A DNA stretch of 40,042 nt from Psammoneis japonica (taxonomy: Eukaryota): contig QPGO01000045.1 of assembly GCA_008632985.1 (NCBI GenBank), forward strand, positions 496,001 through 536,042. The letters are read 5' to 3'. The position numbers and the translations under genes were made by a program. The notes below the pieces were generated by a model, which was not told the origin of the DNA, did not search any database, and was given only the letters and a program-made list of their open reading frames with translations. Below are positions 1-40,042 of the stretch, piece by piece (the stretch's first letter is position 1; every line of letters begins with the position of its first letter).

Positions 1-115
1 ACACCTGCCAACAATTCTCCCCATTTTTTGCGTGTTGTTCTTCTTTTCCCTTCTCATCCACAAGACAAGGATGATGAGCATGAGTCTTGATGAAGGCCCT
101 GTCAACATTGTCTGA

Positions 116-3100
116 TTGAAAATGGACGGAAACCCTCTTCTCTGTCCCGGTTGTTGCCAAAGTTTTTTGCGAACAGCCTGCCATTGGAGATGCTTGCCAA
201 CGTGTTGCTCAGTTGCCCAAGAGTTGCAAACCCAAGATCTGATCCCAGATCAAAGTGACATTCCTGCCACAACAGAGGGGCCACCCAAAGAAAGTGGCAG
301 TTCTTCCTCTTTGTCCTCTGATGATGATGAATCCCATCCGAGGCGATCTGCTTGCAGCAGATTCCCAAGATCTTCAATGAGTGATCCGAGCAGCAGCCCC
401 TTGCTCCCCTCCCCAGATGACGCGCCGCACGGAATGGACGACATGTCCTCCATTTCATTCAACCACAGCATGCATGGAGCTGAGCTTTCAGCAATGAACG
501 ATTTGGATGTTGGCGGTGATCAATCCTTTGCTGCAGTGTTGGACGTGACAATGGAGGAGGAAGAGGACATTCACGATGAGGATCAACGTTTGGGGATCAG
601 GTGTGACGCTCTCCTGCAGAAGAGGCCTTGGCTTCTGCTCCCTCTTTGACAAATCTTGAGGGAGCTTGTGCAGAGTTGTGCAAGAAGCTCATGGACACAC
701 GTGGTGCTCCTCTGGAATTGTGCGACTGCATTGTTGATTTCATTGAGAGGCACACTGGCAACAGCAAAATTGAGCTTGGTGCAGTTCTGCCAAGGAGAAA
801 AGAGTTGATGCGCACCTTAACCAAGCATTTCCCTCTTCCACCCAGCGAGTCCATTCCTGTCACTCTAGAAACCAAAAATTTCAAAGCCGGTTTGCCAAAA
901 TGAGTGTCAGTGCCAAGATGGGATTTCACAAAGGTCTGGGAACAGTTTTTGCTCGATCCTCACCTGCGGTGCAGCAGAGAGAACATGGCCGATCCAGACA
1001 ATCCTTTTGGGAAGCACAAAGTGAAGGGACCGGATGACAAGTGCCTTTTGGCGGGTGAGTGGCACAGGCGCAGTTGCGCAGAATGGATGACTGACCCAAA
1101 GAAACAATTTTTTGAGTGCAATGTCATTTGCCTCAACAAGACTGGCAGGACACAAGGGATGGGATCACATTGTGGAGAACCAGTGATCATGACCTCTGCG
1201 CATGTTGCCTTCAACAAATGGTCAGACAAGAGTGTCTGGAAACCAATTGGTTGTCTCCCGGATTTGGAAAAGATGTCGTCATCTGCGGCAAAGAATCTCT
1301 CAAACAATTGCAAGGCGGAGAAGGGACGCTTGTTGAGAGACTGCCACACTTGCTTGCGTGTCATTTTGGAGCCACTTTTGGAAGTCATGAGAAAAGGAGG
1401 CATGAACACACACGTGTGACGAGGGGATGAGATGCGATGCCTCCACGCAATCCCGCTGATCATTCTGATCACAGGAGATGCAAAAAGCGGCGACTGTCTC
1501 GTCGGATGATGCGGAGGTCACAACTGTCGTCAACGTTGCTGTCGTTTTTGCCTCGCTGGCTCAACAAACTGGACAACCCATGGATTGAATGCGAGTTCAT
1601 CAGAGGACTGGATCTCCAACAAGTGCAAACTAAGGCCAACAATGACAACAGATCAGACCAAGAAAGGAAGTGCTGGTTGGGCATCTTGCATCACCTCAAG
1701 CAACACAACGCACCCACCAACTGTCTTTTTGAGGCAGACTTTGGTGCACAACCATGTGGGCGTCACCCTTGCGACAGCAAGCAACATGATGCATCTCTTT
1801 GAAAATGGCACCTTGAAAAGGGCAATCAATTCATTTGTAGACAGCATGACACCTGTGGTCGCAAGTGAGGTGGACAGAACAGTGGAAAGGATTTTCAGCA
1901 ATCACCGGTCAACTTGCAAAGCCTCCTTTTTGCGAACAAACTTCAAAGGAGGAGCAACGTCGCTTGCCTTCCTCAACTCTCACCACTGGGCTGGAATGGC
2001 TTTTGTTTTCTACCTTCTCCTGTTGACCAGCGAGGGACGAAACGCATGTGAGTCATGCTTCCTTGATGAGGACGCTGACAAACCCATTGTTCCAGAGAAT
2101 CACAAGATGCCCAAAGCGAGCTTTGAGAGTTGCTGCCAACCTGGTGCATGCTTGGACTCTGACGATGAAAGGTCGGAGGAGTCCGAAGAGGGTGACTGGG
2201 ACGAAAATGAGGATGAGAAAGAGGAGAGTGAGACAGAGGATGGTGACGACAACCAAAAAAAGAAAAAATGCAAGGGAAAAAGACTTGACTGCAGCACCCG
2301 GCAATTCATTCAATTGCTCGAGGACCTTCTTGTCTTCCATGCATGGCACAGGCTGGGCAATCCACCCATCACAAGCATGACTCCCAGTTCATCTGTTCAG
2401 AAAACAAACAAGAAAATCCGTCTCCTCATTGACCGGACAGTGCAATTCGTCCCGCTAACAGAAGGATGCGGGCGGAAGCTTCAAAAGCTTCATGAAACAC
2501 TCCATCTCCCAGTGTTTCTTTGTCATTGCCAACACGCGATGAACTTTGATGCAGGCTTGGGGGAGTGTCTCTTGAAAGACTTTTTCAAGCTGCCATCATC
2601 TGCTGCACAACAACGTGACCTCGACAGTTTTCTGAAGCACAGGTCGTGTCGCGTGTGGAGGACCAAGTGAGGCTCAACGCCGCAATTTCAGCTGACAGTT
2701 GGATTTTGCCAACTGGGAAAAAGGAAACATCAATGGTCAGGATGGACAATCACATGCTGGGAGGAAGTGCGTTCACTCTCACCTGCAATCGAGGGATCGG
2801 TGCTGTGATGTTTGAGTGGAACAGCTTGCATGCTCGATGCCAAGTTCATCCTGTGTTGCCAAACTTCATGTCGGAACAGTGGGAGGATTGTGTTGGCGAA
2901 GATGGTGAAAATGCACATCTGACTTGTAAGACAGAGTTTTGCAATGCAAGTGGGAGGGACATGCACTGTGCGCACCCCAGTTGCAAAAGCGAAGGCCCAT
3001 GGCATGACTTTGCCCATGTGACCTTTGGCACACAAAAGGGCGATCAACAGTTTCCCTCCCGTTTGCTGTGTTTCTTTGAACAGGAAGACACAGGATCGAT

Positions 3101-3400
3101 TTTTGCAGTGGTCCATCCAACTGCTTGTCAAGCTGACCAGAGAACCTTGAGGCAATGGCGTCAGCACACAGACTTGGTCAGTCGCTGGCAGCTTGATCAC
3201 AAACAAAACAGCTGGCTTTCAACACCTGAGAAGACTCAGCACTCACCCAAGTTGCAGGTTGTCCCTGTCGAAGCAATTGGGGACAATGTTTTGGTTTACA
3301 AAGAACGTCCAGGAGTGGTGGAAGCACAAGAAAAGGCCCCATTTGTTTGGGCTGCACAGGACAGAAGGAAGTGTTGGTCACATTTGTTTCTAAAATGGGA
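116..3400 (+). pseudogene. Plavaka-like DNA transposase, degenerate (frameshifts and stops)
   Basis: Consecutive ORFs 116-649, 628-903, 904-1419, 1437-1802, 1585-2670 and 2646-3536 give an N-terminal CxxC..H Zn-finger-like motif and an acidic linker. They continue with DPDNPF, [D]KTG, WKPIG[Y]LPDL, [Y]HTCLRVILEPL, ITGDAKSGD, MMHLFENG, KLQKLHETLH..NFDAGLGE and AHPS[Y]KSEGPW[Y]DFA..FPSRLLCFF. This motif order matches Plavaka-type transposases as I recall them. Confidence 0.7.
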
Positions 3401-3424
3401 TGCGCGCATCAATCTGTCATTCAC

Positions 3425-4537
3425 TCACAGTGATTTCCTGACTCTTTCTTGCAAACATGATGAATTTGATCCTTTCAGAATTGGCAAAGTCATTCTGATG
3501 TCTTCTTCCGAAACTCCAAGACAAGCTTCTTCCTGATCGGAAGGCTCTCCCAACCACCGTTCTTGTTGTTCTTGGGTTGTGAGGTCACTTGCAAAGAACA
3601 CACTCGCGCGGCTCTTTGCAGCATCATTGTCCATTGTGCACATGTCAAACACAGCTGACAATTTCTTCCATTGTTTGACAACCTGGAAGAAGGTTGCAAG
3701 AGCAAAGGGAATCACTGCATCCCCCCCTTCTCCCTTTTTTGAAGGCAAGGCCCAAAGATCAATTAGATTCTGGAAAAATTGAGTCGTCCCAAAACGAGAA
3801 TCGTGCCACTCTCCATCTGGCATCCAGCGGCAGTCCAACATGATTTGGTCAAACCCATGATTGTTGAAATCAACAGCATTCTCAAACTGCTGCTTGACTC
3901 TCTTGATGAAATCTCTTGCTTTCACATTGCAATTTAAGCGCAGATCAGGATGGCTGTCTTGGAGAGAAACTGTCAGAACGACGTTTGTGATTGTTTTGTC
4001 AGTTTCCTCAAATGCCATGGCGTGTGCCTTGTCTTGCCTGTGTTGGTCAGACAACACTGAGGCCACCCCCTTCTCAGAGCACAGTTCTTGAGAAGACAGT
4101 TGCCTGGCATTGAGCGGACGGGTCATCCCCAACCACAGCACATGGTTTGTTTCCCCGTTGGTTTCGTCATCTGTGAAACAATCTCCCAAGTCACTGTGGT
4201 CCTCTTCACCCTTGGAGCAATGTGCAACTTGGTTGTGCTCATTGTCAACAGGCTCTTTGCTTTTGTCCTCTTCACCCATGCAAGCAGTTGGAAGTTCACT
4301 TGTTTTCTCATCAATTGACTCCTCCTTGCAATCGTCACTTTTGTTCATTGCGAATGACAACAAATCACCGGCGGCCTTCTTCCTGTTAGAACGAGAATTC
4401 AATGTGACAATGTCAGCAAAATCAGACAAAAAACAAATGTGATTGCCACAAAAAAAGAACCTCTCTTTGCCATTCCAGTTCGGCTTGAACTTCATCAATC
4501 GACACGAATGGGACTGGCTCCCATTCACTCCTTCCAA
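3425..4537 (-). pseudogene. Hypothetical protein, possibly the C-terminal part of the large interrupted ORF
   Basis: 370-aa ORF with an acidic N-terminal part and a globular-looking part (LWLGM..QDKAHAMAFEE..FDQIMLDCRWMP..FFQNL). It overlaps the end of ORF 4422-4868 in another frame and is convergent with the transposase. Confidence 0.45.
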
Positions 4538-6456
4538 ACTGCTTGATCATTGATTGCCCATCAGAGAACAAGAGCAACAGATGCTGTCTGCAACAAAAGA
4601 CATCGCAGATTCCCATCTTTTCACGAGCGACACTCAGGTCACATGGTGAAGACTCTGGGCCATTCTTTCCACACTCTTCCAAATCAAAATCACCCTCTGT
4701 CCGTTCCAAGAGTAAATCGCGCTCCTCCACCGGGACCTTCATTTCCTCCATTTGCTTCGCCGCTCCCAACTTTGCTGCCGGACAGACAAGATTGCGAAGG
4801 TCAGGGTGAGGATGGATCCCTGTGCCACACAGCATCAACATCTGCACAGAGTTCATCAATCTGAACACTCCACAAACAGCGCCTGCATGATCTCATGTTT
4901 GGACCATGGCTTCAAACACATCCTCGATCGCCTTGTGGCCAAACGTTGGCTTGCCAACATTGTCATTGATCCAGTCCATGATGACGACAACCAGTCCCCC
5001 AACAAGCAAGTCCATCAAACCGTCGAGTTTCGTCCCGCACTCTGCCACATGAACCTCCTCGAAATCGAGTCGGCTGTTGCGATCCCCCGCAATGCTGCCG
5101 AACAGCCTCGTGGCTTCTCTGAAGCAATGAAGGACACGATCGCCAGCCACGAAAGGACGCTTCACAGCATCTGTGTTGCACAACAAGCAGCAAAAATGGG
5201 AGAATCCAGTTTGACACCCAGCCACAATGGCGCAACGAAAGCAATCATGCGCGCCAACCTCATCGAGGTTGTCGATGATTGCCGAGCAACCGCGCGAGAA
5301 ATCAAAGTCCTTCACGATGGCAAACAGAAGATGTTTCCTCTGCATGACAATGGCGGGATGCTTGACTTTGTCGGACGGAAGATTTGGCTTGCCAATTTCC
5401 TCTTCCACCCACACAGAGTGAGGGTCAAGGGGAAAATCTTTGATGTTTCTGTGGGTTGGCTTGCCCGACGGAGGACAACAAGGGCCACAACATCTCATCA
5501 TTTCTGCAGCGTGTGACAGATCAAGTTTTGCGAAATGACCATGCACGCACAATTGGAACTCAGCACACCCATGCACCAAACTGACACAGTTTCCAGCATT
5601 GCCTTTGGATGCAGTGACAACCTTCAAGGACCAAGAGCGACCAACAGCGTCTCGCAGTGACACGCAAAGAGCACCAGTCTTGGTGCACCCATCCATGTCA
5701 CAATCCTCTTTGTCAGTGTGTGGCTCGGTGTTCGAATTGACGGATTTTTTGCCGGACGACGAGATGCACTTCACTTGAATTTCCACGCCTTCCCTTCTGA
5801 CATGCTTGGCTCCAACCATCTCACGGAGCTCATCCTCAAAAAGACCATCACAGTGCGGGTCATGGAAGGAGCGCATTTCTTTCAAAGCAACAAGATTGAT
5901 CTTGTCTTTGCAGAGTTGCGCGGCATCCAAGATTGAGGCCATCATCAGCTGCACATCCTTTGGAAGCTTCTCCCACTTGTCTCTGCCAAAGATGGCACCA
6001 GGCTTGTGAGTGGGTCCCACTTCAGCTAACTCACCATCTGCAACTTTGCAATTCTGGCCACAACAACCAAAACAGATCCGACAGCGCCACTTGCATTCTG
6101 GTCCATCCCTTTTTTTGTTCGGCTTGCCATGTTCCAACACTGCACAGAGTGTCAATGACACACTGACTTGCAATCCAAAAAAGTGTTTCTGATGCATCTT
6201 GTCCGTGTGTCGCAAACATGTGACCACGTCAGAAAAATGAGAGGTTGGCTGGGTCGGGTGAGTGATTGCAACCATCGATTCTTGCGCTGGATTGTTGGGA
6301 GCTGCGCCGTTTTCAAATCCATGCACAAACTTGCGGGGGTGATTCGCCAAGCAGAAATCGGAGATGCTGTGGAATGACTGGTGCTTGACACAGTTCCCCT
6401 TGAAAGAACCGGAAATGGGGGTTTCCTCAAAGACGACAAGGTGAGAATGTTGTGAC
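4422..6456 (-). pseudogene. Large hypothetical ORF, central and 3' segment
   Basis: ORFs 4893-6497 and 4422-4868 share one frame, separated by a single TGA at 4893-4895. The 5' side is cut by the MITE at 6461. Confidence 0.55.
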
Positions 6457-6460
6457 TTCA

Positions 6461-6856
6461 GACGGGTTCCAGCCCCAGGTGGGACTTTTTGTGACATTGG
6501 GCCCGTGGAATTCTGCGTGCGAGCTCCACAGTGAAATTGTCAAGCAATGAACACATGAATGATCGCCAACAGAAAAAGAGGCAATTTTGCGAACGTGTCT
6601 CCTCCTCCACACTTGAAGTGCATTCTTTGCAGCATGCCCGGGTGTGTTCTTCAGACATTGAAGAACACACCCAGTGCATTTTTGTTGACACAAGTGCAGA
6701 TGACAGAAAGCCTTTGGCTTCGCAAAACAGACAGTGTGGAACAATTTTTTGTGATGGAACACATGGAAATGTGCACGCGAAACATGCGACGGATGACAAA
6801 AAACAATCATGTCACAGTTCAGTGGTGCGAGGTCCCACCCAGAGCTGGAGCACGTC
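6461..6856 (+). mobile_element. MITE family A, copy 1 (396 bp, ~25-bp imperfect TIRs, TSD TTCA)
   Basis: Starts GACGGGTTCCAGCCCCAGGTGGGAC and ends GTCCCACCCAGAGCTGGAGCACGTC. TTCA lies at 6457-6460 and 6857-6860. Removing it restores the frame EVK-SQHS. Confidence 0.9.
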
Positions 6857-6860
6857 TTCA

Positions 6861-7046: not shown

Positions 7047-7050
7047 AAAC

Positions 7051-7481
7051 TGCCCCACGCATGTGCCAGGTGCTGAAAAGAAGATGTGTTGCGACCTTGT
7101 CGTTGTGAAAATCATGAGCCAGTTTGGAGCAGAGAAAGTGGGATCGTGCGAACAGGGAATCTTGCCAAATCCACATTCGCTCGCATTTGGATCACGTCAA
7201 ATCGATTGTGCGTTCACATTGTGGATCGTGCGAATCAAGCCATCGCGTGCCATGCACGAGTGATGTCATCGTGTGGAATCACGCTGCCATCGTGGGCCAG
7301 ACGACGGGCCAGTGTGCTTCACACGGATGCTCTCTTGGCACCCTTCTGGAGTTTCCCAAGACCTGGAGCCACGCCCTCCTGTGGTCGTGCTTCCCAGGTG
7401 CGTGTTGACAATGCTGCGTTGTCACGCACAAGAGGCTCATGCACGGTCTCGCCGTGTTGTCCTGCAGTGAGGCACACTGCA
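7051..7481 (-). repeat. 3' LTR of the Gypsy element
   Basis: Direct repeat of 11819-12249 with TG..CA ends, adjacent to the polypurine tract. Confidence 0.92.
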
Positions 7482-7494
7482 CACTCCCCCATGA
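7482..7494 (-). promoter_or_regulatory. Polypurine tract of the Gypsy element
   Basis: Minus strand TCATGGGGGAGTG immediately precedes the 3' LTR. Confidence 0.7.
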
Positions 7495-7520
7495 TCAGGG
7501 CAGCCAAGTGACAGGATGTC

Positions 7521-9134
7521 TCACTGGTGACAGGGTGCAATCTGCCGTAGATTGTGCGTTTCCATCAGCGCTCCGTTCTGGATGCGCAACGTGCCGGGTC
7601 CTGCACAGCTGTCAGAACCGCACCCAGAGGATTGTTCCTGTTTGACAAGTGCCAATTGCCCTGCGGTGTGTTGATGCTCCTTGCGTTTCTGATTTTCACG
7701 CTTGTCATTTGAGTGGACAAGCTTCTGCTTTCTGGTTTCTATGTGCTTCCACTTGGCACGATGGGCAACAGACAAAACCGCATCGCGTCCGAAGACCAAT
7801 TGCGCGGGACTTGCACGCGTGGTTGTGTGCACTGCAGCCCCAATGGCGAAGGCCACTGCTGCGGAGAGGATGCCACTCCATGGGTCATCTTCATCCAGTT
7901 CCACACCCTGCACTGAAAAGGAACGCACCATGTCACCAAGTGTCTGGTGTGCATGTTCCACTGTGGCACTCGCCTGTGGATTCCGCTCACTCGTGGGTTT
8001 CTTCAAAATCCCACAGTCATTTTTAATCATCTGGCTAAATTCTGCCATAAATTCTGTCCCACGGTCATAAACCACCTGGGTTGGCCACAGATGTCTGCAT
8101 GGCCACGTTTGTTCCACGACGTTTGCTGCGACGTCTGCGCGTTTCGTGGACACTTCTTCAATCTCGAACCACCCGGTTGCTGGGTCAATCATTGTGACTG
8201 CCCACAATTGCAAAGCGTCCTTTCCGCGTCTTTGAATTTCATGTGGCCCCATCACATCCATGCACAGAGTCTCCCATGGAATTATCTCGGCGACCTTTTC
8301 TGGCAGCTTCCCACAACGCTGCGTTCGGCGTTTTGTCTTCTGACATCGATCGCACTCAACGCACGTAGAATGCACCGTAGACCTCATGCCAGGCCAGCAG
8401 AAGTGCTGGGCAACAGACATTTCCGCACGTGTCTCACCTGGATGACACAGTGTCTCGTGGTGCCATTCAGTTAGCGGGATCTGCAATGACTGTGGCACTG
8501 CGATTTTGTCCTTGTGACAGATTAATTGTCGTGATGACCCTCCCCCACAACACGCGCGAATGGAGCAGTCGGACGAGTCCTCAGCTCGTGAGAGCAGGCG
8601 CTTGTCCTTTTGTTGTTCTTTTTGAATGCGCTTGAAGCTGATGGGCAGAGATGCATCGTCTTGCGCGTCTGCATTAAAAGCTTCATGCAAAGGACGACTC
8701 GATGGAGTGTCTTTTACATCCGGATTGGCCTCGGAAGGCAAGCTGGGTGCCAGCCGAAGGCGACTAAGACCGCCAGCGACTGGGTTGTGGGTGCCCTTGA
8801 CATGGCGTAATTCGGGACCGCATTCTTCGCATGTCAACCGCCAGCGCACAACGCGCTCGGTGTTGAATGCTTTGCACGCAAGATTTTTATGATCAGCACA
8901 TGCAAGTGTGCGATGACCGAGGAGAATCGTTCGAAATTCTTTCAACGTCTCCACAATGGCGAGCAATTCTCTCTCCATTGTTGCACAATTTAATTGCGCA
9001 CTGCTGAGCTTTCTGCCACAAAAGGCGACAGGTTTGTCATCTTGGGATGCAACTGCTCCCCAATTGACATTTAGAGGCATCAGCACGCACCTCAAAGGGT
9101 TTGCCAAAATCAGGATGTGACAATGAAACATCAT
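7521..9134 (-). pseudogene. Gypsy RNase H and integrase
   Basis: RNase H motifs PVAF[Y]..KL..AQLN[Y]..ERELLAIVE and DHKNL; HHCC zinc finger HETLCHPG..CxxC; catalytic core DVMGP / DRGTEF / NPQASATVE. Confidence 0.92.
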
Positions 9135-9213
9135 CCGATGTCACCCATTTGACGGTTTTGAACGCCTCGTCTTCAACGGACGTCCACTCCCACTTGACAG
9201 TCTTGCTTGCGAG

Positions 9214-9870: not shown

Positions 9871-9872
9871 GA

Positions 9873-11815: not shown

Positions 11816-11818
11816 CTG

Positions 11819-30143: not shown

Positions 30144-30533
30144 GGCGCGTTCCAGGTCCAGGTGGGACCTCGCACTGCTGAACTGCGACATCGACAGTTT
30201 TTTGAATCACGTCGCATGTCGCGCACGCAGATTTCTGCATGGTTTTTTTGACATTTTGTGTCATTTTACGGTGCACTCATTGAGCGATCCGTCCAACAAC
30301 TTTTGACATTTTTTGTTGCAGCGCGATTCTGTGATGTCTTAAGAATCGCGCAAGGCAGGTGCATTTGCAAAAACGTCGAGTGGCAAGAGGCATGATTGTG
30401 CCACAAACTTGGCCGTTTGTTTGATGTTGAAGACAAATGTGTCCATTGATTAAATTCTCGCACTGCGGAGCTCGCACGTAGAATTCCAAGGGCCCAATGT
30501 CACACGGAGTCCCGCCCGGGGCTGGAGCGCGTC
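30144..30533 (-). mobile_element. MITE family A, copy 4 (390 bp, diverged interior, TSD AAAT)
   Basis: TIRs GGCGCGTTCCAGG..GGTGGGAC / GTCCCGCCCGGGGCTGGAGCGCGTC. AAAT lies at 30140-30143 and 30534-30537. Confidence 0.88.
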
Positions 30534-30764: not shown

Positions 30765-31225
30765 CAATTTTTGCATTGAGAATTTGCCAGGGAAATGACT
30801 CACCCACAGACAAAGCAACACAGACATTTTGACACTGCCAAACAACAATTTTGTGAGCAAATGGGGAGGGAAATGAAACACTCACAGACAAACTAACACA
30901 GACATTATAACACCGCCAAACAAAAATTTTGTGAGCAAATGGGGAGGGAAATGACACATCCATGGACAAAGTCACACAGACCTTAAGACACTGCCAAACA
31001 AAAAATTTTGTGAGCACATGGGGAGGGAAATGACACACCCACGGACAAACTAGCAAAGACAATTTGACACTGCCAAACAAAAATTTTGTGAGCACATGGG
31101 GAGGGAAATGACACAGCCACGGACAAACTAACAAAGACAAAATGACACCGCCAAACAAAAATTTTGTGAGCAAACAGGGAGGGGAAATGACACACCCACG
31201 GACAAACAAACACAGACAAACTGAC
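30765..31225. repeat. Tandem repeat, ~78-bp unit x~6
   Basis: GGGAAATGA..CAC..ACAAA..GACACTGCCAAACAA.AATTTTGTGAGCA recurs about every 78-79 bp. Confidence 0.9.
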
Positions 31226-31317
31226 ACAGAAGCTGTAAAAGCTCATAACCTAATTGAACAAGCCGAGAACTTTTAGGTCCATAACCCATTTGATGTAAAA
31301 GCTCATAACCTGTTTAA

Positions 31318-32170: not shown

Positions 32171-33321
32171 TCAGCCAAGCATTGTTCTCACATGTTGTGA
32201 CCAGCAGCGTGGCTGCAAGCAACACCCAAAACAAGTGACTGAGTGCCAAAATCGCCACAAACCTGAAAACAAAAAGTGGGCAATGAGTGTTGCGGGATTC
32301 ACAGCAGCACAGCCATTTTGAGACTGCGATGCTCCCCGCACACATTTTTGTGGTCGATGCATGTGCCCAACTGCCCAAACTTCATTTTTGTTGTTTTTTG
32401 TTCCACGGGTGGTTGTGCGTCTTTTTTTCTTTGACGAATTCGTTGGGGTCGGCGGTGGTTGTTCTGCTGTCATTCTTCCTGTCGGCGGCGTGTCCTTCTT
32501 TGGCTTGCTGGCGTTCTTCATTTTTTCCATTTCCTTTCTCTTTGCCTCCATTGCCTTCGCTCTTGCCGCCGCCTTCCCCCCTTTTCTTGTCTGCCTCAGT
32601 TCTCTTCCTCCTTGCCTGCTCCTTTCTTTCCTCCATTTCGGCCAGCGCCATCGCCCTGCGTTTCTTTGCGTCCATTTTTGTCTCACGATCCGGAGCTGCT
32701 CGAACAACTCTTTTCCTCACATTCTTGTTTGGCAGTTCAGACACTTTTGACGGGTTTCATCTTGGCTGAAACTTTGGCAGCAGCCACAGCACTTGAAGGG
32801 TCGTCATCATCTGACGCGCCAATCTCCGATTCAGAGGATGATTCAGAGGATGAGGAGACCAGATCCATTCTCAGCTGTCTTTTCCTTGCAGCGGAGCGCG
32901 GCACTTGGTTGATTCGATTCAGGAGGGAGCAACTGCTGTCGCTGTCACTCCCCGCTTGCAAGGGGTTCGTCGCTCGAATCTGTGCCACTCCCAGCCACAT
33001 CCATGTTTTGTTCGTCCTCTTCCACCTGTTGCTCAGGGTTTGCAGCAGACGGTTCCTCTTCATCTGCTTTGTCATTTCCTTGCCCCCCCTGTTGACGGTC
33101 GTTCTCCTCTGACATTCCCTCTCTGTCAGAAGTCGCTTTGTCATCTGGCGACTGGCCGGCGCCCCCATCGCCCCCCTCATCTGAACCATCTTTCTTTTGT
33201 TCTTCATCTTGAGGGGGCGCGCAATCTCCATCTTTGTCAGGGGTGTGATCGTCATCGTCATCATTGTCGTTGTTGTCGCGTGTTTTGTCCTCATCCTTCT
33301 CTGATGCCTCCTCCTCCTTCT
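32171..33321 (-). pseudogene. Low-complexity acidic then K/R/E-rich ORF remnant of unknown function
   Basis: Frameshifted ORFs: EEEASEKDEDK..DDDDD, SSSESSSESE and KRRAMALAEMEERKEQARRKR. Partly duplicated at 22241-22647. Confidence 0.35.
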
Positions 33322-34008
33322 GCAGCATGCGTGCAGACAAAAGGTCATTTGACGCGTTCCAGACGCAGGTGGGAATCCGTGTGACATTGGGCCCGCAGAC
33401 TTCTGCGTGCAAGCTCCGCAGCAAAATTGCGCGGCAATTAAAGCGCCAATGATCGCCAACAGAAAATGAGGCAATTTTGCGAACACACAAACTCGCACAT
33501 GATTGAAGTGCGCGCTGTTGTTTCCACAAATTCGCCATGTGAAACGTCTGGGGCTTCGCAAAACAGCGAGTCTGGACAATTTTTTTTAAACATCGCACGC
33601 AGAAATCTGCGTGCGAAACATGCGACGGATGACAAAAATTGTTGTTGTCACACGTCAGTGCTGCGAGCTCCCACCTGGGGCTGGAACGCGTCATTTTTGT
33701 CACGCCCTTTGTGACATTTAAAGGCTGCAACACGTTGCCGTGACACGTTGACTCTCATTGGCAGCTGTGTGCTGCACTCCTCCCCATGCATCGCGCATCC
33801 ACGCGGCTCTTTGCTGAAGTGTGCTGACACTGCATGGTTTTGGCAGAACAGTGTGGGTGCGTGCGAAGGAACATGCAGAGCTGCACAGAGTTTTGCGCGT
33901 TCGACAGTGGTCAACGTTGCTGCAGACAACTCCCACTCAGGGTTTCGAACCCCTGGCCTCCTGCCTGATGGTTGCGACAAACCACTCCGCTGTGAATTCA
34001 CAGCGCAG
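33322..34008 (-). mobile_element. Family B SINE-like copy interrupted by MITE copy 6
   Basis: Colinear with 27291-27631 after removing 33351-33696; palindrome at 33988-34005. Confidence 0.7.
33351..33692 (+). mobile_element. MITE family A, copy 6 (342 bp, internal deletion, TSD ATTT)
   Basis: TIRs are intact, with ATTT at 33347-33350 and 33693-33696. The empty site is visible in the family B copy near 27311. Confidence 0.92.
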
Positions 34009-34317: not shown

Positions 34318-34499
34318 CCCTCCCCTGATCTGCAATGTCTCAACACAGAGAACAGTGCAGATCAAACCAAAGAACAGGGATGATGTGAGGAAAAAACAGA
34401 GAGACTGGACACAGGACATGAGAAGTGTCCATGCCCAACGCGCCATCAAACAAGAGGGCAATGCGCAGCAGGGAGGCCACCGCGGAAAAAAACATCAAC

Positions 34500-36200
34500 A
34501 GCAGCGTCCCATCATGCGTNGCGAGCGTGTGGCACCCAGCCAAGGGCCTTGGTGAGGTCATCGCTGGGGTTGACAATGCCAGGAACATGTCTTGTGACAA
34601 TCTTGCCCGCTTCCTTCCATTCTTGGATCGCAAAAAACTGAATCTCAATGTGACGGGATCGCTCAGTCGGGATCGAGTGATTGATGATCTTGATCGCCGA
34701 TTCGTTGTCAATGTGTGCGGGGTTGGCTCCGTCTGAGGGAAGCCCAGGTCTTGTAGAACGTGACGAAGGTGCAGGACATGCTTGGCAGCAGTTCCAGCAG
34801 CACAAAATTCAGCTTCCGTAGAGCTCGCAGCGGTCACCGATTGGGTCTTGCACCGAAAAGACACAGCAGCGCCAGCCAACATGCAAGCATGGCCAGTCGT
34901 AGAACGATGGTTGCGGAGGTCATTGCCACAAGCAGCATCCAAGAAAGCAACGAGTTGATGATCACATGCAGGACAAGGGAACGATGGCAAGGTCGGGTCC
35001 GGAGTGAGACGTTCGAAGGGGCAGGCGGGCAGTTTGGAGTCTCGGGCAGGCTTCCTGCAGTTCAATTCCCAATGTTTGGTGCGTCGAAGGTGCTTGCACA
35101 TTCCTTTGAGCACGTCACAGTGAACCACAGCAGGACAGGTCGAGAACTTGGATGGAGTGGTGACAGCATGCCCAATGTCCAGTCGACAGACAACGCACGC
35201 ACACAACAATTCGCCAAGAAGAGTTCGGCAGCCGAAACCAGCAGCTTGTTGTGGTTCCGCATGCTCCGGGGTTCCTTCAGCTGGGCCAATGGCACCACAC
35301 AGTTTGCGAAAAGAGTCAACAGGTGGTGGCGCAGCCTTGCAGTCGTCGTCAAGTTCCTCGTCCGTCAGTGTCGACCAACCATGCTGGGCACAAACCCGAT
35401 CCATGTGGCTGTGAACAGCAACACCAATGGAGTCATTGCATTGATGAACATCTGCGCCATTGAATTCGTCAATCATGCCAAGACACTTGAACGGCGGAGA
35501 GGTCTCCGATTCCAATTGGAGAGCTTTGCCAATCTTGTCACAGATCTTGATCGCAATGGACTCTTCAGGACAAGCGAGAGAGAAATCATCAACCTGACGG
35601 AGGAGCAAGATCTTGTGTCCTTCAAAAGCAGCAGAGTGGGCACATTTGTCATGAGCAGTGTTGTGAAAAAGCTGGTTCACATCNAGATGAAATGCCGTTG
35701 ATGTGCGTCTCCCAGAGCACGCCGGCTTCTGGGTGTCCTTGAAGTGCATGTTGCATCGGGAGCACCGTGCTCCTGTCCAAGTCAATGCCAAACCGAGCCT
35801 TGTGCCAGGTTGCGCATGCCTCGTCTGTGGCAACACACACGGGGTGTGACGGTCGTGGAGAGTGTGCACAGACATCACGAGCATCCCCACCAAAGACAGG
35901 ATAGCTCATGGTCGCAGCAAGGGCAAAAAACATGCGTTGGATGGGCTGCTCAACACAGGATGAGTGCGTCGAGTAGAGTCAATGTAGCATCAACGCAGCA
36001 TGGGGAGATCCATCACAGCACTGTCGAGAGCGCCGTGTGCCATCATGCTTGAGGTCATGTTGCCAATGTGGACAAAGTGCGACAGCATCCTTGGGTCATT
36101 TAATCGGTGCACCAAACATCCCCAACTCATGGAACTGGTCAAGTTGTTTGAATTCACCTGCACGCCATTCAGGCCACGTGTCCAACTTCTTGAGGCAGTG
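34500..36200 (-). pseudogene. Copia reverse transcriptase and RNase H
   Basis: ALQGHPEAG.LWE, LLRQVDDF, GF.[Y]RTLLGELL[Y], DAA[Y]GND, SSTEAEF, DNESA and NPSDDLTKALG. Confidence 0.92.
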
Positions 36201-37900
36201 GCGGGTGAAAGCACCTGAGGCTTGTTCCTCTGGAGTGACAGCGTGAGATGAGACAGCACAGATGTTGACCACACCATTGTCACAATCAACAAAGAACGGC
36301 GGAGGGACATCGTCATCGTCCGTTTCGGAGAAATCAATGTCGGGGTGGCGGATGGCAGCAACAGCACGTGTGTCGGCGTTGGTGATTTCCGGAACATGCT
36401 CATCATCAGGATCAGGACTCGGTGCACATGTGTTGTGTTCCATCAGAGCACGTTGCAGGGCTTGAGAGTCCAGGCGACGTTCCGGCGCGAATTCAATTTC
36501 AAAATGAGTCTTGCCAGAATCACAGACTTGCTGAAAACGTTTGACAGCCTCCTCTGCCGTGAACACAGGATGATCGTCGATCGACACGACACACGCACCC
36601 TTGATCTTGTTGCGGGTGGCCTTCAAAGAAGAGAAAAGACGCGCAGCAGGAGAACCACGCTTGATGTCAGAGACAAATGCTCGCCGATGGAGATCGTCCG
36701 TAGCCAAGGAAAGTCCAAACGTGGGATCAGCAAATGGTCCCTTCATCATGCGCTCAATGGTCTTGGCAAAAGGATTCCCATGAAAGTGGAGCTCATCCAT
36801 CGTGGTTTCTTCAGTCTCGGCAGGCAAAGCCTTGCCATCTTGAGTGCGTTCCAAGTGAACCACATTCGGCGGAAGAGAGTCGTGGGGAAGATCATTCATG
36901 CCCTCATCGCAGCGAATGTGCTTGGCAAGCTTGACACGCGATGTCTCAGTGTCACACCAAAGAATGTTCTTGGCAGTGTCCGGAAGACAGCCTAAGAACA
37001 TTCCCTTGCGAGAGACAGACCGAAATTTTGCTGGGCGGTGATTCGACGCACGCACCCACACTTGACAACCAAATGCACGAAAGTTCTTGAAATCATCCTT
37101 CCGACCAGTGGCGAGAGCAATCGGAGCAGCAGGTTGTCCGCGGGATGGCACAGCGTTGTTGATTCGAATGAAATGATGAAAAGCACAGGGCCAGAATTTG
37201 ATGGGCAAATCGGCACCGATTGGCATCGCCCGGATGGCATTGGCAACAGACAAATGACTGCGTTCCACTGGGCCACTCTGATTTGAAGCATCTTTTCCCG
37301 CAGGACGAATTGCACAATGAAAGTCATCCTCGAAGAGTTGCCGAACTTCTGGGTTCTGATGTTCACCTCCTTGATCCATGAATGCATGTTTGTCTGGACA
37401 TTTTGGTGAGTGCTCTTCCAGAAAGTGGCGAATCCAATTCAAAGGGGTTGCCTTGGAGACACGAGTCGCACCATGGAGACGCTTCGTTTTATGATCATAA
37501 ACAGCAATCCAACAAGTCTCGCCATTCAATCCAACACAGTCCTTGGTGCGCTCCGAGTTCTTGGAGCGCAGGCCAGAGAAGGAAAAATCAATCGCAAGGC
37601 CTTGGTGGTTGGCAGCAGAGAGTGTTCGGACCGGCAGGTTCCTTCGTCTGCTTTTGTGTGCATGTGGGACAAGTGTCGAGAGGAGAAGTTCCGTGGGCAA
37701 ACTTGGGGACGCCATCAACATGTTCATGGGCATGACAAAGGCAGTGATCACTCGGATGACCAAGTCGCTGATGCCACAAAAGACGTTCCGTGTCGGCCTT
37801 GAGAGACTGGACAGGAATGTTCTTCTCAGCATGCTTCTCGAAAGGAATGTCTTGACAGACACGGGGGATCAACTTGCGTTCATCACGAAGAGCTTCATGT
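36200..37900 (-). pseudogene. Copia pre-integrase, integrase and PDZ-like linker
   Basis: LLWHQRLGH..CPTC, IDFSFSG, MDQGGE, NQSGPVER, FWP[Y]AF, FGCQVWVR and GMFLG[Y]. Confidence 0.9.
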
Positions 37901-38052
37901 TGGTGGGTGCGACAAGTCTCAATCACACGCAGAGACCGCTTCACACTCATCGGCAAAAGAAGGATCAGCAGTCTTGAGGCGCTCGACAGATGCATCCAGT
38001 TCGTCGTTAGATTCCGGGAGAATGAGAGGGTGAGCAAAACATTTTCCATTGA

Positions 38053-39687
38053 TCAATTTTCCATGAATGACAACATCCTGACTCTTGCGCAATCGGTGTC
38101 GTGCAACAAACTTGCAGGTGCCGAGATCATGGAACTTGAGATGCAATCGACATTGCAATCTGCGCGACGAGAACCATTTTGACGAAGGAGGAGTCGCTCA
38201 TCGACCAACGTAGATTGGATCTGTGGGTGGCAGCATGCACGGACCTCAACACAGCCATCAGAGTTCTCTGCAGGGATGCGAAGACAGCCGAATCCAACTG
38301 GGACAGCTTGGTGGCCAAGGGCCGGGTTGACGGCAAGGGGACAGGGATGGGACGGAGTGAAGTCTTGGCAGCGATGGAGGAGGTCACGGTCGCCTGCACA
38401 CGCAATGTCGGCACCTGCATCCAACTGAGCACAATGTTCATTCGGAGCAAAGTTTTCCCCATTGACAGAACAAGTGGATCGCAGCAGTTCCGGCTCAGGT
38501 GAGTGATTCGCCTGGCATGGATTGATCGGAGCAACACGAACAGAATTGATGGCAGCAAAACCGTCTTCAACAGCCATGTCATCACAGGTGAGATCAACAC
38601 ATTCCTCAAAAACCGGTGTTTCTGGGTCTTCCCTGCCCTGTTCCAAAGGATCCGGAACATGAGCAGCATCGACGGAGGCTTCTTGAGGAGCAGGGTCATC
38701 ATCGGGCAGCGTGTCAGTGTCAAATTATGTGGCAACCTGAATCAAAGGCATGACGTTGGAGATTTTGGTGCCATGCTCGCATCCCAGGGGGGAGAGTCGT
38801 CATGACATGCAGGAGGTTCTCTGAACAGCATTTTCTGATCAGGAGTCGAGCTCATGATGAAAAGGGCACCATCGTTGAGGATGACACGATCGGATGCATC
38901 AACACAGTGATGGAATCCATGGTCGCAAGGGACGAGAGAGCTCTGAAGAGCAACTTTTTCATCTTCTTTGCGGTCGTAGCGTGCAGGAACGTCTGCAGGA
39001 AGTGTGCTTGGATTGAAGAGGCATTTTGATGTTGCGGAAGATGCAGTGCTTCCAGATGTCTTAGCAGAAGCTGTAGAAGCGGAGCATGGCTCGACGCGCA
39101 TGCATTGGGTGCAGTTGCCAAGTCAGTCACAGTCAATGTAGCAGGTCCTGTGGGTTTCTGAGAAGAAGACGGAGGCTGCTGTTTCTTCTGGCAGGGCGCA
39201 AGAGAGAACTCGTTCCAACTGCAACAGTTCCATGTCATGTCCAGATCAACATGCATGTGTTGGGTAGACACGACAATGAACAGAGATTGTCCACCGTTCT
39301 GAAGATTCGTCTTGATCATCTTTGACAAGATTGGAGTCGTCAGGCAGACTGGACGAGCCTTTGAGGGTCAAGAAGTCTGAACGGGGCTTGATCCACAATC
39401 GTCTTGATTGATTCTATGTCCGTGGGATCAGCTGTGTAAGGTGGAAACGCTTCATGGATGAAACAATCGCAAAGCATGTCCGCAAAATCGTTCTTGGGTT
39501 GCGCACGCTCTGGATCGTCAAAAAATCGATCGAGATCAGTCATGGAGTCTGCACAAACCGCACTCAGGCACTGATGTAGATGTGGTGTCGTTGCATGTGC
39601 CTCAAATTCACAGTGGATCTCTGCAATTGACGCAGGAGTGACTTTTGCAAGGTCGGGAGACGCCATGGTTTTAGTGGTTGGAGCCAT
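38053..39687 (-). pseudogene. Copia gag and protease, fragmented
   Basis: Protease-like AQLDAGA..GDRDLLH..G.G.LRIP motif. Upstream fragmented ORFs from MAPTTK are assigned to gag by position. Confidence 0.7.
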
Positions 39688-39847
39688 TTTTGGTCATGCA
39701 CGCACAGAAATCTGGTGTGTTTCTACAGTCGTGAAAAATGCCGGGAAAGCGAAACAAAAAGTTGTCGGATCAGACAATGAGGCTCGCTCGATCGGCTCAC
39801 AAAACAAATGAACCGAGATAGAAAGCTTGGCGCAGAAGTCTGTGGCA

Positions 39848-40042
39848 GACGCGTTCCAGCTCTGGGTGGGACCTCACACCACTGAACTGTGACACAATTG
39901 TTTTTTGTCATCCGTCACATGTTTTGCACTTGCATTTCTACGTGTTCCATTGTAAAAATTTGTTCCACACTGCCTGTTTTGCGAAGCCAAAGGCTCTCTG
40001 TTGTCCACATTCATGACAACAAAAATGTGCTGGGTGTGTTCT
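39848..40042 (-). mobile_element. MITE family A, copy 7 (cut by the window end), in the Copia leader
   Basis: GACGCGTTCCAGCTCTGGGTGGGACCTCACACCACTGAACTGTGAC matches the reverse complement of the right end of copy 1. Confidence 0.9.

Follow-up and report, generated by a model that had tools for sequence, protein, structure and literature searches.

The window, the whole stretch of 40,042 nt analysed here, is a transposon-rich nest of repeats in a eukaryotic nuclear genome. A complete Gypsy element, a Copia element, seven MITE-like copies, a RusA-like gene and unknown high-copy open reading frames (ORFs) fill it, and we found no host gene across the 40 kb. The preliminary description had extended its claims to neighbouring genes; that part is not supported. 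Read depth in run X1 identifies positions 1-15000 as high-copy repeat and 15000-18000 as low multi-copy.

The Gypsy LTR retrotransposon (7051..12249, minus strand) was delimited by its LTR pair, its flanks and Pfam matches. It sits inside another repeat, where its insertion duplicated a 4-bp target site, AAAC; an X1 contig ending at 7050 runs on into the sequence after 12253 and represents the empty Gypsy site. Both LTRs measure 431 bp and lie on the minus strand: the 3' copy (7051..7481) has TG...CA ends and no TpA, the 5' copy (11819..12249) a single one. On the same strand they enclose an RNase H and integrase ORF (7521..9140; PF17917, PF17921, PF00665), a reverse transcriptase fragment (9217..9789; PF00078, E = 2.2e-9) and a gag and aspartic protease ORF (9873..11720; PF13975 and PF13650, under curated cut-off). 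The internal part of the Copia-type element (34340..38052, minus strand; PF13976, PF25597) comprises a gag-pre-integrase (37591-38052), an integrase (36096-37868) and a reverse transcriptase-like ORF (34340-35905), all on the minus strand; no Copia LTR pair was found inside the window.

One MITE-like element (6460..6857, plus strand) is 398 bp long and ends in inverted repeats of 26 nt, and further copies or fragments lie at 20373-20759 (minus), 21264-21463, 30140-30545 (minus), 31380-31776, 33350-33693 and 39847-40042 (minus); X1 depth over MITE-like sequence reaches ~50,000, against ~60 for single-copy DNA. A RusA-like Holliday-junction resolvase ORF (29576..30178, plus strand; PF05866, E = 6.8e-10; phrog_140) is followed by a 78-bp tandem repeat of 5.5 copies (30789..31227, plus strand). 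Two dispersed repeats on the plus strand, 32744..33149 and 33694..34008, have partners at 22241-22647 (93.6% alike) and 27317-27631 (89.8%, no gaps). Read depth also places high-copy ORFs at 1510..6539 (1510-3536 plus, 3425-4546 minus, 4893-6539 minus), none of which has a family match, and two further unknown ORFs occupy 12255..17902 (12255-13307 minus, 15059-16606 plus).

Composition of the window and its coding remnants

TpA is nearly absent. Among 38,401 non-N bases we counted 140 TpA (observed/expected, o/e, 0.06), against 2370 expected (sd 37, minimum 2263) from 200 mononucleotide shuffles of the window, and o/e stays between 0.02 and 0.19 in all 2-kb bins, with no edge to normal DNA inside 1..40042. 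TG (3974, o/e 1.64) and CA (3803, o/e 1.75) are in matching excess. CG stands at 1487 (o/e 0.64), and arithmetic on the dinucleotide counts balances some 2230 missing TA and 935 missing CG against a TG+CA surplus of about 2980. ApA (o/e 1.28) and TpT (1.32) lie above expectation. The loss is equally deep in MITE-like elements, the RusA gene and spacers, and o/e is 0.01-0.05 in the ORFs of 1510..6539 and 0.02-0.07 over 12255..17902; the tandem repeat retains several TpA, in the contexts CTAA and TTAT. These counts bear out the TpA deficit and TG/CA abundance first described, along with the accompanying scarcity of Tyr (0.09% of residues in six-frame translation) and prevalence of TGA (1719 six-frame stops, or 89%, with 141 TAA and 71 TAG).

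Cys or His stands in place of conserved Tyr. All seven motifs cited earlier were recovered in place: in Gypsy, CLDD for the reverse transcriptase YxDD (9520-9531, minus strand), MGHCHI (9685-9702), ECLGH (9379-9393) and PVAFC (9018-9032); in Copia, GELLCAC (35195-35215), STTGH (34889-34903) and FWPCAF (37179-37196). Across 17 Gypsy pol columns in which 40 homologues conserve Tyr, the window has Cys in 10, His in 6, Phe in 1 and Tyr in none; six such columns of the Copia integrase (29 homologues) give Cys 4, His 1 and Trp 1. The exchange thus touches 16 of 17 and 5 of 6 columns, and two sites of the RusA-like ORF, where a homologue has Tyr and the window Cys. Tyr content is normal in 120 of 120 Gypsy homologues (overall median 4.1%, Gypsy minimum 2.4%), and these comparisons polarise the change as TAY>TGY/CAY. 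The Cys of FWPCAF may be ancestral within its Copia clade: two TA-rich relatives, L001 and L005, have exactly one Cys each among the conserved-Tyr columns, plausibly in this same KFWPCAFH motif.

Timing, strands and authenticity of the TpA loss

The Gypsy LTRs date the loss. Identical at insertion, they now differ by 53 mismatches, without gaps over 431 bp: 12-13 CA/TG doubles, 17 single CG versus TG/CA differences, 4 other transitions and 3 transversions. Only 7 differences per 431 bp thus involve neither CpG nor TA, and CpG decay would be expected to yield about 2 of the doubles. No TA is common to the pair, and each LTR resolved about 21-26 ancestral TA (5-6%) on its own. The loss of TpA therefore postdates integration; it struck the two copies independently, on either strand. 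At a single LTR site, TAAA faces TGGA, an adjacent AA>GG. The same doubles recur elsewhere: 115 CA/TG against 6 control AC/GT doubles in 29 non-tandem self-alignments, including 5 between the copies of 32744..33149 and 9, with 9 CG versus TG/CA singles, between those of 33694..34008. Variable sites of the MITE family show TG/CA with or without TA, or CG/TG/CA; TA and CG never meet at one site.

That last class reflects CpG decay, probably derived from 5-methylcytosine and superimposed on TpA loss in the same elements. The LTRs share 16 CpG and differ at 17 (~35% lost per copy), and 11 of 40 window-private sites read TG/CA against CG in every other copy. By dinucleotide arithmetic this decay supplies about one third of the surplus TG and CA; as had been noted, the retroelements still have many CpG (o/e 0.82 in Gypsy, 0.77 in Copia).

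A metagenomic Copia family holds both TA-rich and TA-poor copies. From the TA-rich L001, 82 TA correspond to TG/CA in L003 (10 in reverse) and 86 in L008 (6 in reverse), in a set whose 16 loci were all fetched by peptide patterns from the mutated protein, including KFWPCAFH, and are thereby biased towards edited relatives. In the contigs, some of which may be chimeras, depletion goes no further than the homology to the element (0.18-0.23 within, 0.50-0.75 beyond). A compositional bias of the whole genome, or selection acting against TpA/UpA without targeted mutation, would accommodate the missing edge within the window and the mild TpA under-representation common in eukaryotes. We find it scarcely credible, since the loss followed insertion and differs between LTRs of an element that entered with normal TA (~5-6%), a proteome with 0.09% Tyr could not work, and the metagenomic depletion ends with element homology. 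Outside its targets, moreover, the alga Bigelowiella natans (B. natans) keeps 6.0% TpA in the data of a preprint on TpA hypermutation (Mettrop et al., bioRxiv 10.64898/2026.01.13.699255, 2026). That figure, and contig ends with TA in two sister libraries, hint at a normal TA content in the single-copy genes of the window's genome.

The changes are present in reads: contigs from a public run reach 98.5-99.4% identity to low-copy stretches of the window over 497-728 nt, although this run may be the assembly's own source and so not independent of it. The extremity of the signature, the possible shared origin of the sole strong read source, and TA in contig ends adjoining window-like segments in two small sister libraries could suggest a sequencing, base-calling or assembly artefact, for instance conversion on one strand only or misreading of a modified base at TpA. 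We give this a very slim chance. The matching contigs stand at single-copy depth; an artefact on one strand would yield two variants per former TA and shatter contigs; TG and CA outcomes are intermixed on single molecules, and surviving TA obey a sequence rule (below). Independent metagenome assemblies carry the signature with TA-rich copies alongside, as do 10 Copia proteins without Tyr in a public library, and de novo events were seen in Illumina-sequenced B. natans lines (10.64898/2026.01.13.699255).

Sequence context and candidate chemistry

The 140 surviving TA follow a strict pattern: 72 lie in YTAR, 68 in RTAR or YTAY and none in RTAY, a context whose share is 22% in those 500-bp segments of related metagenome loci that have kept most TA (o/e at least 0.45). 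In the metagenomic Copia family, edits per opportunity were 0.41, 0.42, 0.26 and 0.18 with C, T, A and G at +1. A pyrimidine there raises editing over a purine (OR 2.8, p = 9e-7, pseudo-replicated because the four depleted copies share sites), and the -2 base had no effect among the same pseudo-replicated copies (p = 0.14). The edited A thus favours a 3' pyrimidine, T-A-Y, so that RTAY is the first context to disappear and YTAR, as in TTAA, the last. Both strands are hit without coordination. Along one Gypsy ORF, Cys, from A>G in the sense strand, and His, from the antisense strand, form 10 runs against 8.8 expected, and runs tests on TG/CA outcomes in the metagenomic Copia family found no strand-coordinated runs (z -1.35 to +0.95).

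RNA-level A-to-I editing of retroelement transcripts by an ADAR/ADAT-like enzyme, fixed by reverse transcription and re-integration, would explain why retroelements are the clearest cases here. RNA adenosine deaminases also typically favour a 5' U, a point made in the preprint's discussion (10.64898/2026.01.13.699255). Even so, this route is very improbable: no event before integration could set the two LTRs of a single insertion apart at 12-13 former TA sites, T>C in the sense strand (Tyr>His) is frequent (6 of 17 Gypsy columns), metagenomic RTAY sites resolved to TG 35 and CA 27 times, and MITE-like DNA elements, the RusA gene and spacers are depleted to equal degree. ADAR, moreover, prefers a 3' G, which is the least edited 3' neighbour in our data.

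Targeted error-prone repair, in which a Pol-eta-like polymerase is drawn to silenced or foreign chromatin and misincorporates opposite T at WA to give A>G, is somewhat less remote but still improbable. In immunoglobulin hypermutation, Pol eta does produce A:T>G:C at WA, with TA above AA, and the adjacent AA>GG of the TAAA/TGGA site fits such a polymerase. Against it, ApA and TpT are enriched rather than depleted, and a 94% loss of a single dinucleotide beside 7 other LTR differences is too specific for polymerase errors. All 230 of 230 A>G/T>C mutations in two viral regions of the preprint also lie at TpA, and the spectrum of the accumulating lines already largely lacks an ApA component and transversions beside it (10.64898/2026.01.13.699255).

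We favour host DNA editing at TpA, acting after integration and to near saturation with the chemistry of adenine deamination, at a probability of roughly 0.55. Once an element has integrated, A:T pairs of its TpA are changed to G:C, in this reading by deamination of adenine to hypoxanthine in DNA, with a TadA/ADAT2-like enzyme as the candidate. Strands are hit independently, an A changed on one giving TG and on the other CA, and the 3' pyrimidine preference clears the palindromic RTAY first and spares YTAR, such as TTAA, longest. Tyr codons are destroyed, with many Ile, Asn, Lys and Thr codons; TAA and TAG stops go, G+C rises by ~6 points and the elements are inactivated, with concurrent CpG decay on the same elements. 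The data above establish the direction of the change, its dinucleotide, its timing after insertion, the independence of copies and strands and the +1 context; the deamination chemistry and a role in defence are inferred. For bacterial TadA, whose context is U33-A34-C35, T-A-C/T is a fit; in eukaryotic ADAT2/3 substrates a purine mostly follows A34, a mismatch with T-A-Y. We know of no established natural genome-wide DNA adenine deaminase, and to our knowledge no enzyme, inosine or modified base behind TpA hypermutation has been shown in any organism.

The same targeted post-integration process could instead start at thymine, with a TET/JBP-like dioxygenase converting the T of TpA to 5hmU/5fU. 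This product, or another T modification, would mispair with G and give T>C, and the modified strand would carry the motif 5'-R-T-A-3'. Because TpA is its own complement, an A start and a T start look alike in sequence alone: TG/CA with a 3' pyrimidine reads equally well as a modified T preceded by a purine. Dinoflagellates have thymine hypermodification with a TpA preference, and 5hmU is only weakly mutagenic. The preliminary description had raised the thymine route, and we regard it as unlikely but worth keeping in view. Neither this analysis nor the preprint's main text holds anything that points to thymine modification, and the preprint's authors prefer adenine deamination, with an ADAT2-like candidate (10.64898/2026.01.13.699255).

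Relation to known hypermutation systems

The claim that no mechanism had been described stands for the enzyme, of which the 2026 preprint names only a candidate, the ADAT2-like protein Bn78255, and falls for TpA hypermutation itself, which that preprint reports from one alga (10.64898/2026.01.13.699255). In B. natans lines, TpA-only A:T>G:C hypermutation arises de novo: 230 of 231 mutations in two integrated viral regions were A>G or T>C changes, every one at TpA, and 324 coding sequences with a TpA frequency of 0.0018 are enriched in reverse transcriptase and DDE domains. As in the window, NCLDV and virophage DNA there changes at TpA only, to TpG or CpA by strand, and integrated foreign DNA shows long-term TpA depletion with CpA+TpG enrichment. 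This spectrum, the LTR pair and the homologue comparisons together support the earlier claim of a process acting on either strand of class I and class II elements. The window clears the preprint's cluster thresholds (rho TpA <=0.43; CpA+TpG >=1.52) widely, being saturated at o/e 0.06 over at least 40 kb where the B. natans NCLDV region has 0.45. It also extends the targets to LTR retrotransposons, MITE-like elements and other high-copy repeats, whereas the preprint calls transposable elements merely 'potential' targets; the words 'LTR', 'retrotransposon', 'tetranucleotide' and 'flanking' are absent from its main text. New here are LTR retrotransposons hit to saturation, the T-A-Y context, the timing from an LTR pair, the absence of strand runs, the parallel CpG decay and a depletion that ends with element homology.

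AID/APOBEC enzymes offer a precedent for host deaminase-type hypermutation as defence within a short sequence context, as proposed here. They convert C to U (G>A or C>T), often in strand-coordinated fashion and, for retroelements, mostly during reverse transcription, whereas the window shows A:T>G:C after integration, with TG and CA free of strand runs. TadA and ADAT2-ADAT3 target A after U/T (U33-A34), the bacterial TadA site U-A-C fits T-A-Y, and evolved TadA deaminates A in DNA in laboratory adenine base editors; in nature these enzymes work on the anticodon loop of tRNA, unlike the DNA change in the window. ADAR hyper-editing of repeat-derived double-stranded RNA shares A>G, the 5' U preference and repeats as targets, but it edits RNA and can explain neither LTR-LTR differences nor edited DNA transposons. 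Methylation-driven CpG decay likewise gives TpG/CpA, but is unable to remove TpA or turn TAY into TGY/CAY.

Fungal RIP is likewise a post-integration mutational inactivation of mobile DNA by dinucleotide-specific transitions that skew dinucleotide indices. It requires duplicated sequence and a sexual phase. In B. natans, a single-copy viral insert that is hit argues against a need for duplication (10.64898/2026.01.13.699255). RIP turns CpA into TpA by C>T, leaving AT-rich DNA and stop codons; the window turns TpA into CpA/TpG and gains G+C. The LTR pair and the TAY>TGY/CAY polarity thus support the original suggestion of a RIP-like inactivation that runs in the reverse direction.

Composition and contents of the window

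Dinucleotide counts bore out the near-absence of TpA and the abundance of TG and CA reported in the preliminary description. Across 38,401 determined bases (N runs occupy 18073-18959 and 21489-22240), we counted 140 TpA (observed/expected ratio, o/e, 0.06), compared with 2370 ± 37 (minimum 2263) in 200 shuffles of the window. This 17-fold depletion is accompanied by enrichment of CpA (3803, o/e 1.75) and TpG (3974, o/e 1.64), and CpG numbers 1487 (o/e 0.64). Over 20 bins of 2 kb, o/e ranges from 0.02 to 0.19 for TpA, from 1.34 to 2.82 for TG and from 1.51 to 3.24 for CA. Arithmetic on the window counts places a deficit of ~2230 TA plus ~935 CG in near balance with a TG + CA surplus of ~2980. 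A Pol-eta-like process making errors at WA is an unlikely source of this pattern, since ApA shows no depletion (o/e 1.28). Residual TpA peaks (24, o/e 0.19) in the 2-kb bin that contains a 78-bp tandem repeat (5.5 copies, 30789-31227), which keeps several TpA in the contexts CTAA and TTAT. Positions 24000-30000 show strong G-over-C skew (GC skew 0.2-0.5) and CpG o/e down to 0.23; the region consists of repeats of 102-255 bp, arranged in tandem or dispersed, and its minus strand carries long ORFs of low complexity.

The coding consequences were likewise as described, with Tyr at 0.09% of six-frame residues and stops dominated by TGA (1719, versus 141 TAA and 71 TAG). The near lack of TAA and TAG leaves 191 stretches of 90 or more codons free of stops across all six frames. 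Regions of such TpA loss yield many false gene calls and hidden homology, and can mislead gene prediction and repeat annotation. Were the loss a genome-wide compositional trait, the proteome would have to operate at 0.09% Tyr, which is impossible; this explanation is also contradicted by the dating of the loss to after insertion.

All genes identified in the window with Pfam and PHROGs are mobile or virus-like. A complete Gypsy LTR retrotransposon occupies 7051-12249 on the minus strand, with 431-bp LTRs ending in TG...CA and a 4-bp target-site duplication (AAAC). On the minus strand, its protease ORF (9873-11720), RT (9217-9789) and RNase H plus integrase ORF (7521-9140) follow one another as expected of Ty3/Gypsy elements (gag-PR-RT-RH-IN). 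A contig from X1, a public sequencing run, ends its match at 7050 and continues into sequence found from 12254, after the Gypsy element; it represents an empty site, and the Gypsy is therefore nested inside another repeat. A Copia-type element on the minus strand (~34340-38052) comprises gag-pre-integrase (37591-38052) and integrase (36096-37868) upstream of an RT-like ORF (34340-35905) with no Pfam match. Because no Copia LTR pair was found within the window, the LTR timing test rests on the Gypsy element. A MITE-like element of 398 bp lies at 6460-6857, and its 26-nt terminal inverted repeats are 81% complementary. Its family has seven copies or fragments in the window and very high X1 depth, as expected of class II/MITE sequences; the exact 24-nt core had no match in metagenome contigs. 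Lastly, a plus-strand ORF (29576-30178) encodes a RusA-like Holliday-junction resolvase (Pfam E 6.8e-10, phrog_140). It lies within this eukaryotic repeat region and has only two homologues in a large protein collection; it may be what is left of an integrated virus, or else a mobile element of unusual type.

The preliminary description had extended the change to neighbouring genes. This part was not sustained: neither Pfam nor PHROGs found a host gene in the window, and the genes in question are probably unrecognised mobile DNA. For an ORF at 4893-6539, none of 5434 candidates reached E ≤ 0.001, and the other unassigned long ORFs matched no Pfam or PHROG family. They may encode transposon proteins or be decayed host genes, and their homology may be hidden by hypermutation itself. 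Comparing X1 contigs with positions 1-18000, we found depths of thousands to ~50,000 over 1-15000 and ~200-600 over 15000-18000, and near-perfectly matching contigs had depths of 53-64. Positions 1-15000 are therefore repeat DNA of high copy number, and 15000-18000 is multi-copy at a low level. Two small sister libraries of the same sample, X2 and X3, share next to none of the window's words, and none of the public runs listed is an RNA run containing a stretch of the window.

Direction and timing of the change

For the Gypsy RNase H/integrase ORF we built an alignment with the best 40 of 120 homologues, all metagenomic and none more than 57% identical. At 17 conserved-Tyr columns, the window carries Cys at ten, His at six, Phe at one and Tyr at none. 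Other conserved residues are mostly retained (G 22/22, W 10/11, R 23/28), and the commoner non-Tyr replacements, Ile>Val (7), Ile>Thr (4) and Thr>Ala (5), are the changes predicted for TA across or inside codons. Tyr content is ordinary in all 120 Gypsy homologues (overall median 4.1%, lowest Gypsy value 2.4%). The same replacement is seen in the Copia integrase ORF, where six conserved-Tyr columns read Cys (4), His (1) and Trp (1) in an alignment of 29 of 150 representatives; the closest Copia proteins are metagenomic and at most 55% identical. The RusA-like ORF has Cys at two Tyr of its homologue. All seven retroelement motifs previously cited are present where they had been placed. CpG decay is unable to produce the Cys and His readings at conserved Tyr, in line with the earlier argument that CpG deamination does not turn TAY into TGY or CAY. 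Among the 150 Copia-type representatives, ten lack Tyr altogether (P0180, P0202, P0205, P0206, P0225, P0236, P0251, P0262, P0265 and P0267) and 18 have at most 1%, with Cys or His at conserved-Tyr columns in the Tyr-poor proteins. Edited Copia copies of several lineages are therefore already in public protein sets; when aligned, the Tyr-poor proteins proved too divergent for a locus search to be started from them.

Along the single Gypsy ORF, Cys and His outcomes, and thus TG and CA, alternate at Tyr sites (10 runs versus 8.8 expected). This alternation contradicts a sequencing or assembly artefact arising by strand-wise conversion, which would also leave two variants per former TA and broken contigs. 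X1 contigs of 497-728 nt instead match the low-copy part of the window with 3-11 differences, although X1 is possibly the assembly's own data.

The LTRs of one retrotransposon insertion are identical at integration. The Gypsy pair aligns without gaps and differs at 53 of 431 positions. These differences comprise 12-13 adjacent double mismatches with CA in one copy and TG in the other (CA<>TG doubles), one TA<>TG, 17 single CG<>TG/CA, four other transitions and three transversions. Both LTRs share 16 CpG and no TpA. From the 16 shared and 17 discordant CpG, loss per copy is ~35%, which predicts ~2 CA<>TG doubles and so leaves ~10-11 derived from TA. Since sites that resolve independently finish in the same state half of the time, ~21-26 ancestral TpA per LTR are implied, or 5-6% of dinucleotides, a normal value. 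Every one of these ancestral TpA was lost after insertion, copy by copy. We considered CpG decay as the sole source of the doubles and rejected it, as it would need ~59 CpG per 431 bp with 16 still shared. At one LTR site (11894-11895 versus 7126-7127), TTTAAAG in one copy faces TTTGGAG in the other, two adjacent A>G changes with the second outside TpA; it is the sole such case in the pair.

Repeat copies give the same picture. Across 29 non-tandem self-alignments of the window, there are 115 CA<>TG doubles compared with six control AC<>GT doubles. Variable sites in the MITE family are of two kinds: some show TG/CA, in part alongside a surviving TA, and others combine CG with TG/CA. At no site are both TA and CG seen. 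Among the 40 best-supported sites where all X1 contigs are unlike the window, CG in every other copy faces TG/CA in the window at 11, three show the reverse, and one has TG in the window and TA in the others, at CTAA. Two overlapping processes therefore shaped this DNA: near-complete TpA>TpG/CpA change and ordinary CpG>TpG/CpA decay. Secondary CpA>CpG editing was also considered and rejected, given the 11 versus 3 window-private sites and conserved His, Gln, Cys and Trp that rarely read Arg. X1 copies differ almost entirely by transitions, which run about equally in both directions (A>G 257, G>A 269, C>T 314, T>C 273; each transversion type 11-27), as predicted if different copies resolve to TG or CA. 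X2 and X3 contigs less than 90% like the window (sites 6809 and 15359-17151) have non-matching ends with normal TpA, and one X3 contig end resembles a MITE terminus with TA where X1 copies have TG. These ends could come from copies that escaped editing, or mark where edited DNA gives way to normal DNA.

These comparisons also bear on ADAR-type RNA editing fixed by retrotransposition. This explanation is contradicted by LTRs of one insertion that are unlike each other, by T>C on the sense strand (the six Tyr>His in Gypsy), and by editing of MITEs and the RusA-like ORF, which are not retroelements. The Gypsy, Copia and MITE comparisons thus support the core of the preliminary description, namely TpA>TpG/CpA change on either strand in class I and class II elements.

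Sequence context in a metagenomic Copia family

Starting from the Copia integrase of the window, we retrieved 16 metagenome loci (L001-L016); the patterns used were taken from the mutated protein, so that edited copies are favoured in this set. Loci L001, L003-L008 and L011-L016 belong to a single Copia family. Their DNA is 80-99% alike, and the protein is ~50% identical to that of the window's Copia element. Across the metagenome loci, TpA o/e runs from 0.65 to 0.24. TA in the TA-rich L001 faces TG/CA in the depleted L003 at 82 sites (reverse 10), in L008 at 86 (reverse 6) and in L006 at 63 (reverse 8), compared with 20 versus 19 in a control between TA-rich L001 and L013. Depleted copies differ from one another by 43-51 TG<>CA doubles. 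In L003, L008 and L016, TpA o/e is 0.18-0.23 in the family-homologous part and 0.50-0.75 in the rest of the contig, which suggests that depletion is confined to the element, with the proviso that metagenome contigs may be chimeric. The same metagenome assemblies hold the family in TA-rich (L001, L005) and depleted form (L003/L004, L006/L007, L008, L016), and the depleted copies contain many stops. Together, the TA-rich to depleted copies look like a natural series of editing stages.

We compared this family with the window to define the context of the change. The window's 140 surviving TpA divide into 72 YTAR, 42 RTAR, 26 YTAY and no RTAY; 39 are TTAA, and ATAT, GTAC, ATAC and GTAT are absent. 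Counted on both strands, the base 3' of A at survivors is A at 141, G at 71, C at 47 and T at 21. In the least TA-depleted 500-bp windows of related metagenome loci (TA o/e ≥0.45), RTAY makes up 22% of TpA, so ~31 would be expected among the window's survivors. We then chose 139 sites that read TA in L001 as well as in one or more further TA-rich copies. These were scored, flanks unchanged, in four depleted copies, L004 and L007 being left out as near-duplicates; the resulting p-values are optimistic as the four copies have sites in common. TA was retained at 14% of RTAY sites versus 33-39% in the other classes (Fisher p=1e-5). Edits per opportunity on each strand, by base 3' of A, were 0.41 for C, 0.42 for T, 0.26 for A and 0.18 for G (pyrimidine versus purine, odds ratio 2.8, p=9e-7), and the base 5' of T had no effect (p=0.14). 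The edited-strand motif is therefore T-A-Y, on which the metagenome family and the window's survivors agree.

At RTAY, where T-A-Y lies on both strands, outcomes were 35 TG and 27 CA, indicating no sense-strand bias. An apparent excess of TG over CA in retroelement interiors was not upheld as such a bias, since TA-rich relatives also have TG>CA. TG and CA outcomes are randomly interspersed along each depleted copy (runs test z -1.35 to +0.95).

A candidate genome defence and its relation to known systems

The change is DNA-level, post-integration and TpA-specific, converts A:T to G:C on either strand and favours a 3' pyrimidine. It reaches ~94% of sites without strand-coordinated outcome runs, alongside CpG decay. 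We know of no enzyme for natural A:T>G:C DNA editing as genome defence. U-A-C is the context of the tRNA site of bacterial TadA, and evolved TadA edits DNA. A host-driven defence in which a TadA/ADAT2-like enzyme deaminates adenine to hypoxanthine would account for the pattern. Modification of the paired thymine in place of adenine would have the same sequence outcome, and the two routes cannot be told apart by sequence.

The preliminary description knew of no described mechanism. The phenomenon itself has already been described in a 2026 preprint on Bigelowiella natans by Mettrop et al. (10.64898/2026.01.13.699255). A full-text literature search, in which subscription journals lay outside coverage, found the signature described only there. 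According to that preprint, 231 of 302 nuclear point mutations in mutation-accumulation lines fell in two viral inserts, a single-copy integrated NCLDV of 186 kb and a virophage insert; 230 of the 231 were A>G or T>C, all at TpA. Hypermutation occurred in 11 of 15 lines, and in some of them the de novo rate was about 1e-6 to 1e-7 for each site and generation. The authors further report 124 TpA-poor, CpA+TpG-rich clusters and 324 CDS whose TpA frequency is 0.0018 and in which RT and DDE domains are over-represented. They name an ADAT2-like candidate enzyme (Bn78255) and describe transposable elements as 'potential' targets; the main text contains none of the words LTR, retrotransposon, tetranucleotide and flanking. 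The window falls within the preprint's footprint thresholds (rho(TpA) no higher than 0.43 combined with a rho(CpA+TpG) of 1.52 or more, over three or more consecutive 1-kb windows), as judged by o/e, the same kind of ratio, in 2-kb bins rather than by the preprint's own script. AC:GT microsatellites are reported to be very common in B. natans (PMC13746701). Editing of (AT)n tracts by TpA>CpA could in principle produce (AC)n, which is pure speculation.

Numbers from the preprint (211 mutations, 6169 TpA, 3132 generations) give a rate of ~1.1e-5 per TpA per generation, at which, by our own arithmetic, 95% of TpA would be lost in ~3e5 generations. The seven non-CpG, non-TA differences between the Gypsy LTRs (1.6%) correspond to ~2e7 generations at the preprint's background rate of 3.46e-10. 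If rates are comparable across organisms, which is an assumption, editing was active for ~1% of the Gypsy's residence. This fits the view of the preprint's authors that editing is switched on and off.

Against this single report of two viral inserts in one alga, the window presents the end state on ordinary transposons and dates TpA editing to after integration. Its contribution to a phenomenon already known from the preprint is a set of mechanistic constraints and a searchable footprint. Window and metagenomic Copia family together constrain a candidate enzyme to a T-A-Y motif, both strands, no TG/CA runs and confinement to the element, and TpA o/e <0.2 with Tyr replaced by Cys or His in retroelement ORFs offers a footprint for finding other hosts. 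We tentatively propose, at a probability of roughly 0.35, a general eukaryotic defence pathway that acts on genomic double-stranded DNA after integration. It would recognise T-A-Y and hence work fastest at palindromic RTAY, choose strands at random without processive tracts, be switched on transiently, and be able to erase ~94% of TpA from transposon families of 70-800 copies, with its footprint also in uncultured organisms of metagenomes. If so, the process is not peculiar to two viral inserts in one alga, and Tyr-free, Cys/His-rich retroelement ORFs with TGA-only stops would be a searchable marker for the enzyme by phylogenetic profiling.

Among known systems, B. natans is the closest in kind: the window's changes are also A>G/T>C transitions at TpA, giving TpG or CpA. 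The B. natans targets are described as integrated foreign or mobile DNA and not the ordinary genome; the same restriction may apply to the window, whose identifiable parts are all mobile or virus-like and repeated. Fungal RIP proceeds by C>T, mostly CpA>TpA, and enriches TpA, whereas the window is the reverse; the opposite direction originally claimed is confirmed by TA>CA/TG in the Gypsy Tyr columns and the polarised metagenome counts. RIP also needs duplicated sequence and is premeiotic; every part of the window is present in multiple copies, and the preprint reports a single-copy target in B. natans. APOBEC-type editing is G>A or C>T and strand-coordinated, unlike the A:T>G:C changes here, for which runs tests indicate no strand coordination. 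ADAR-type editing makes A>G on the transcript strand before integration, whereas the window was changed after integration and carries Tyr>His on the sense strand.
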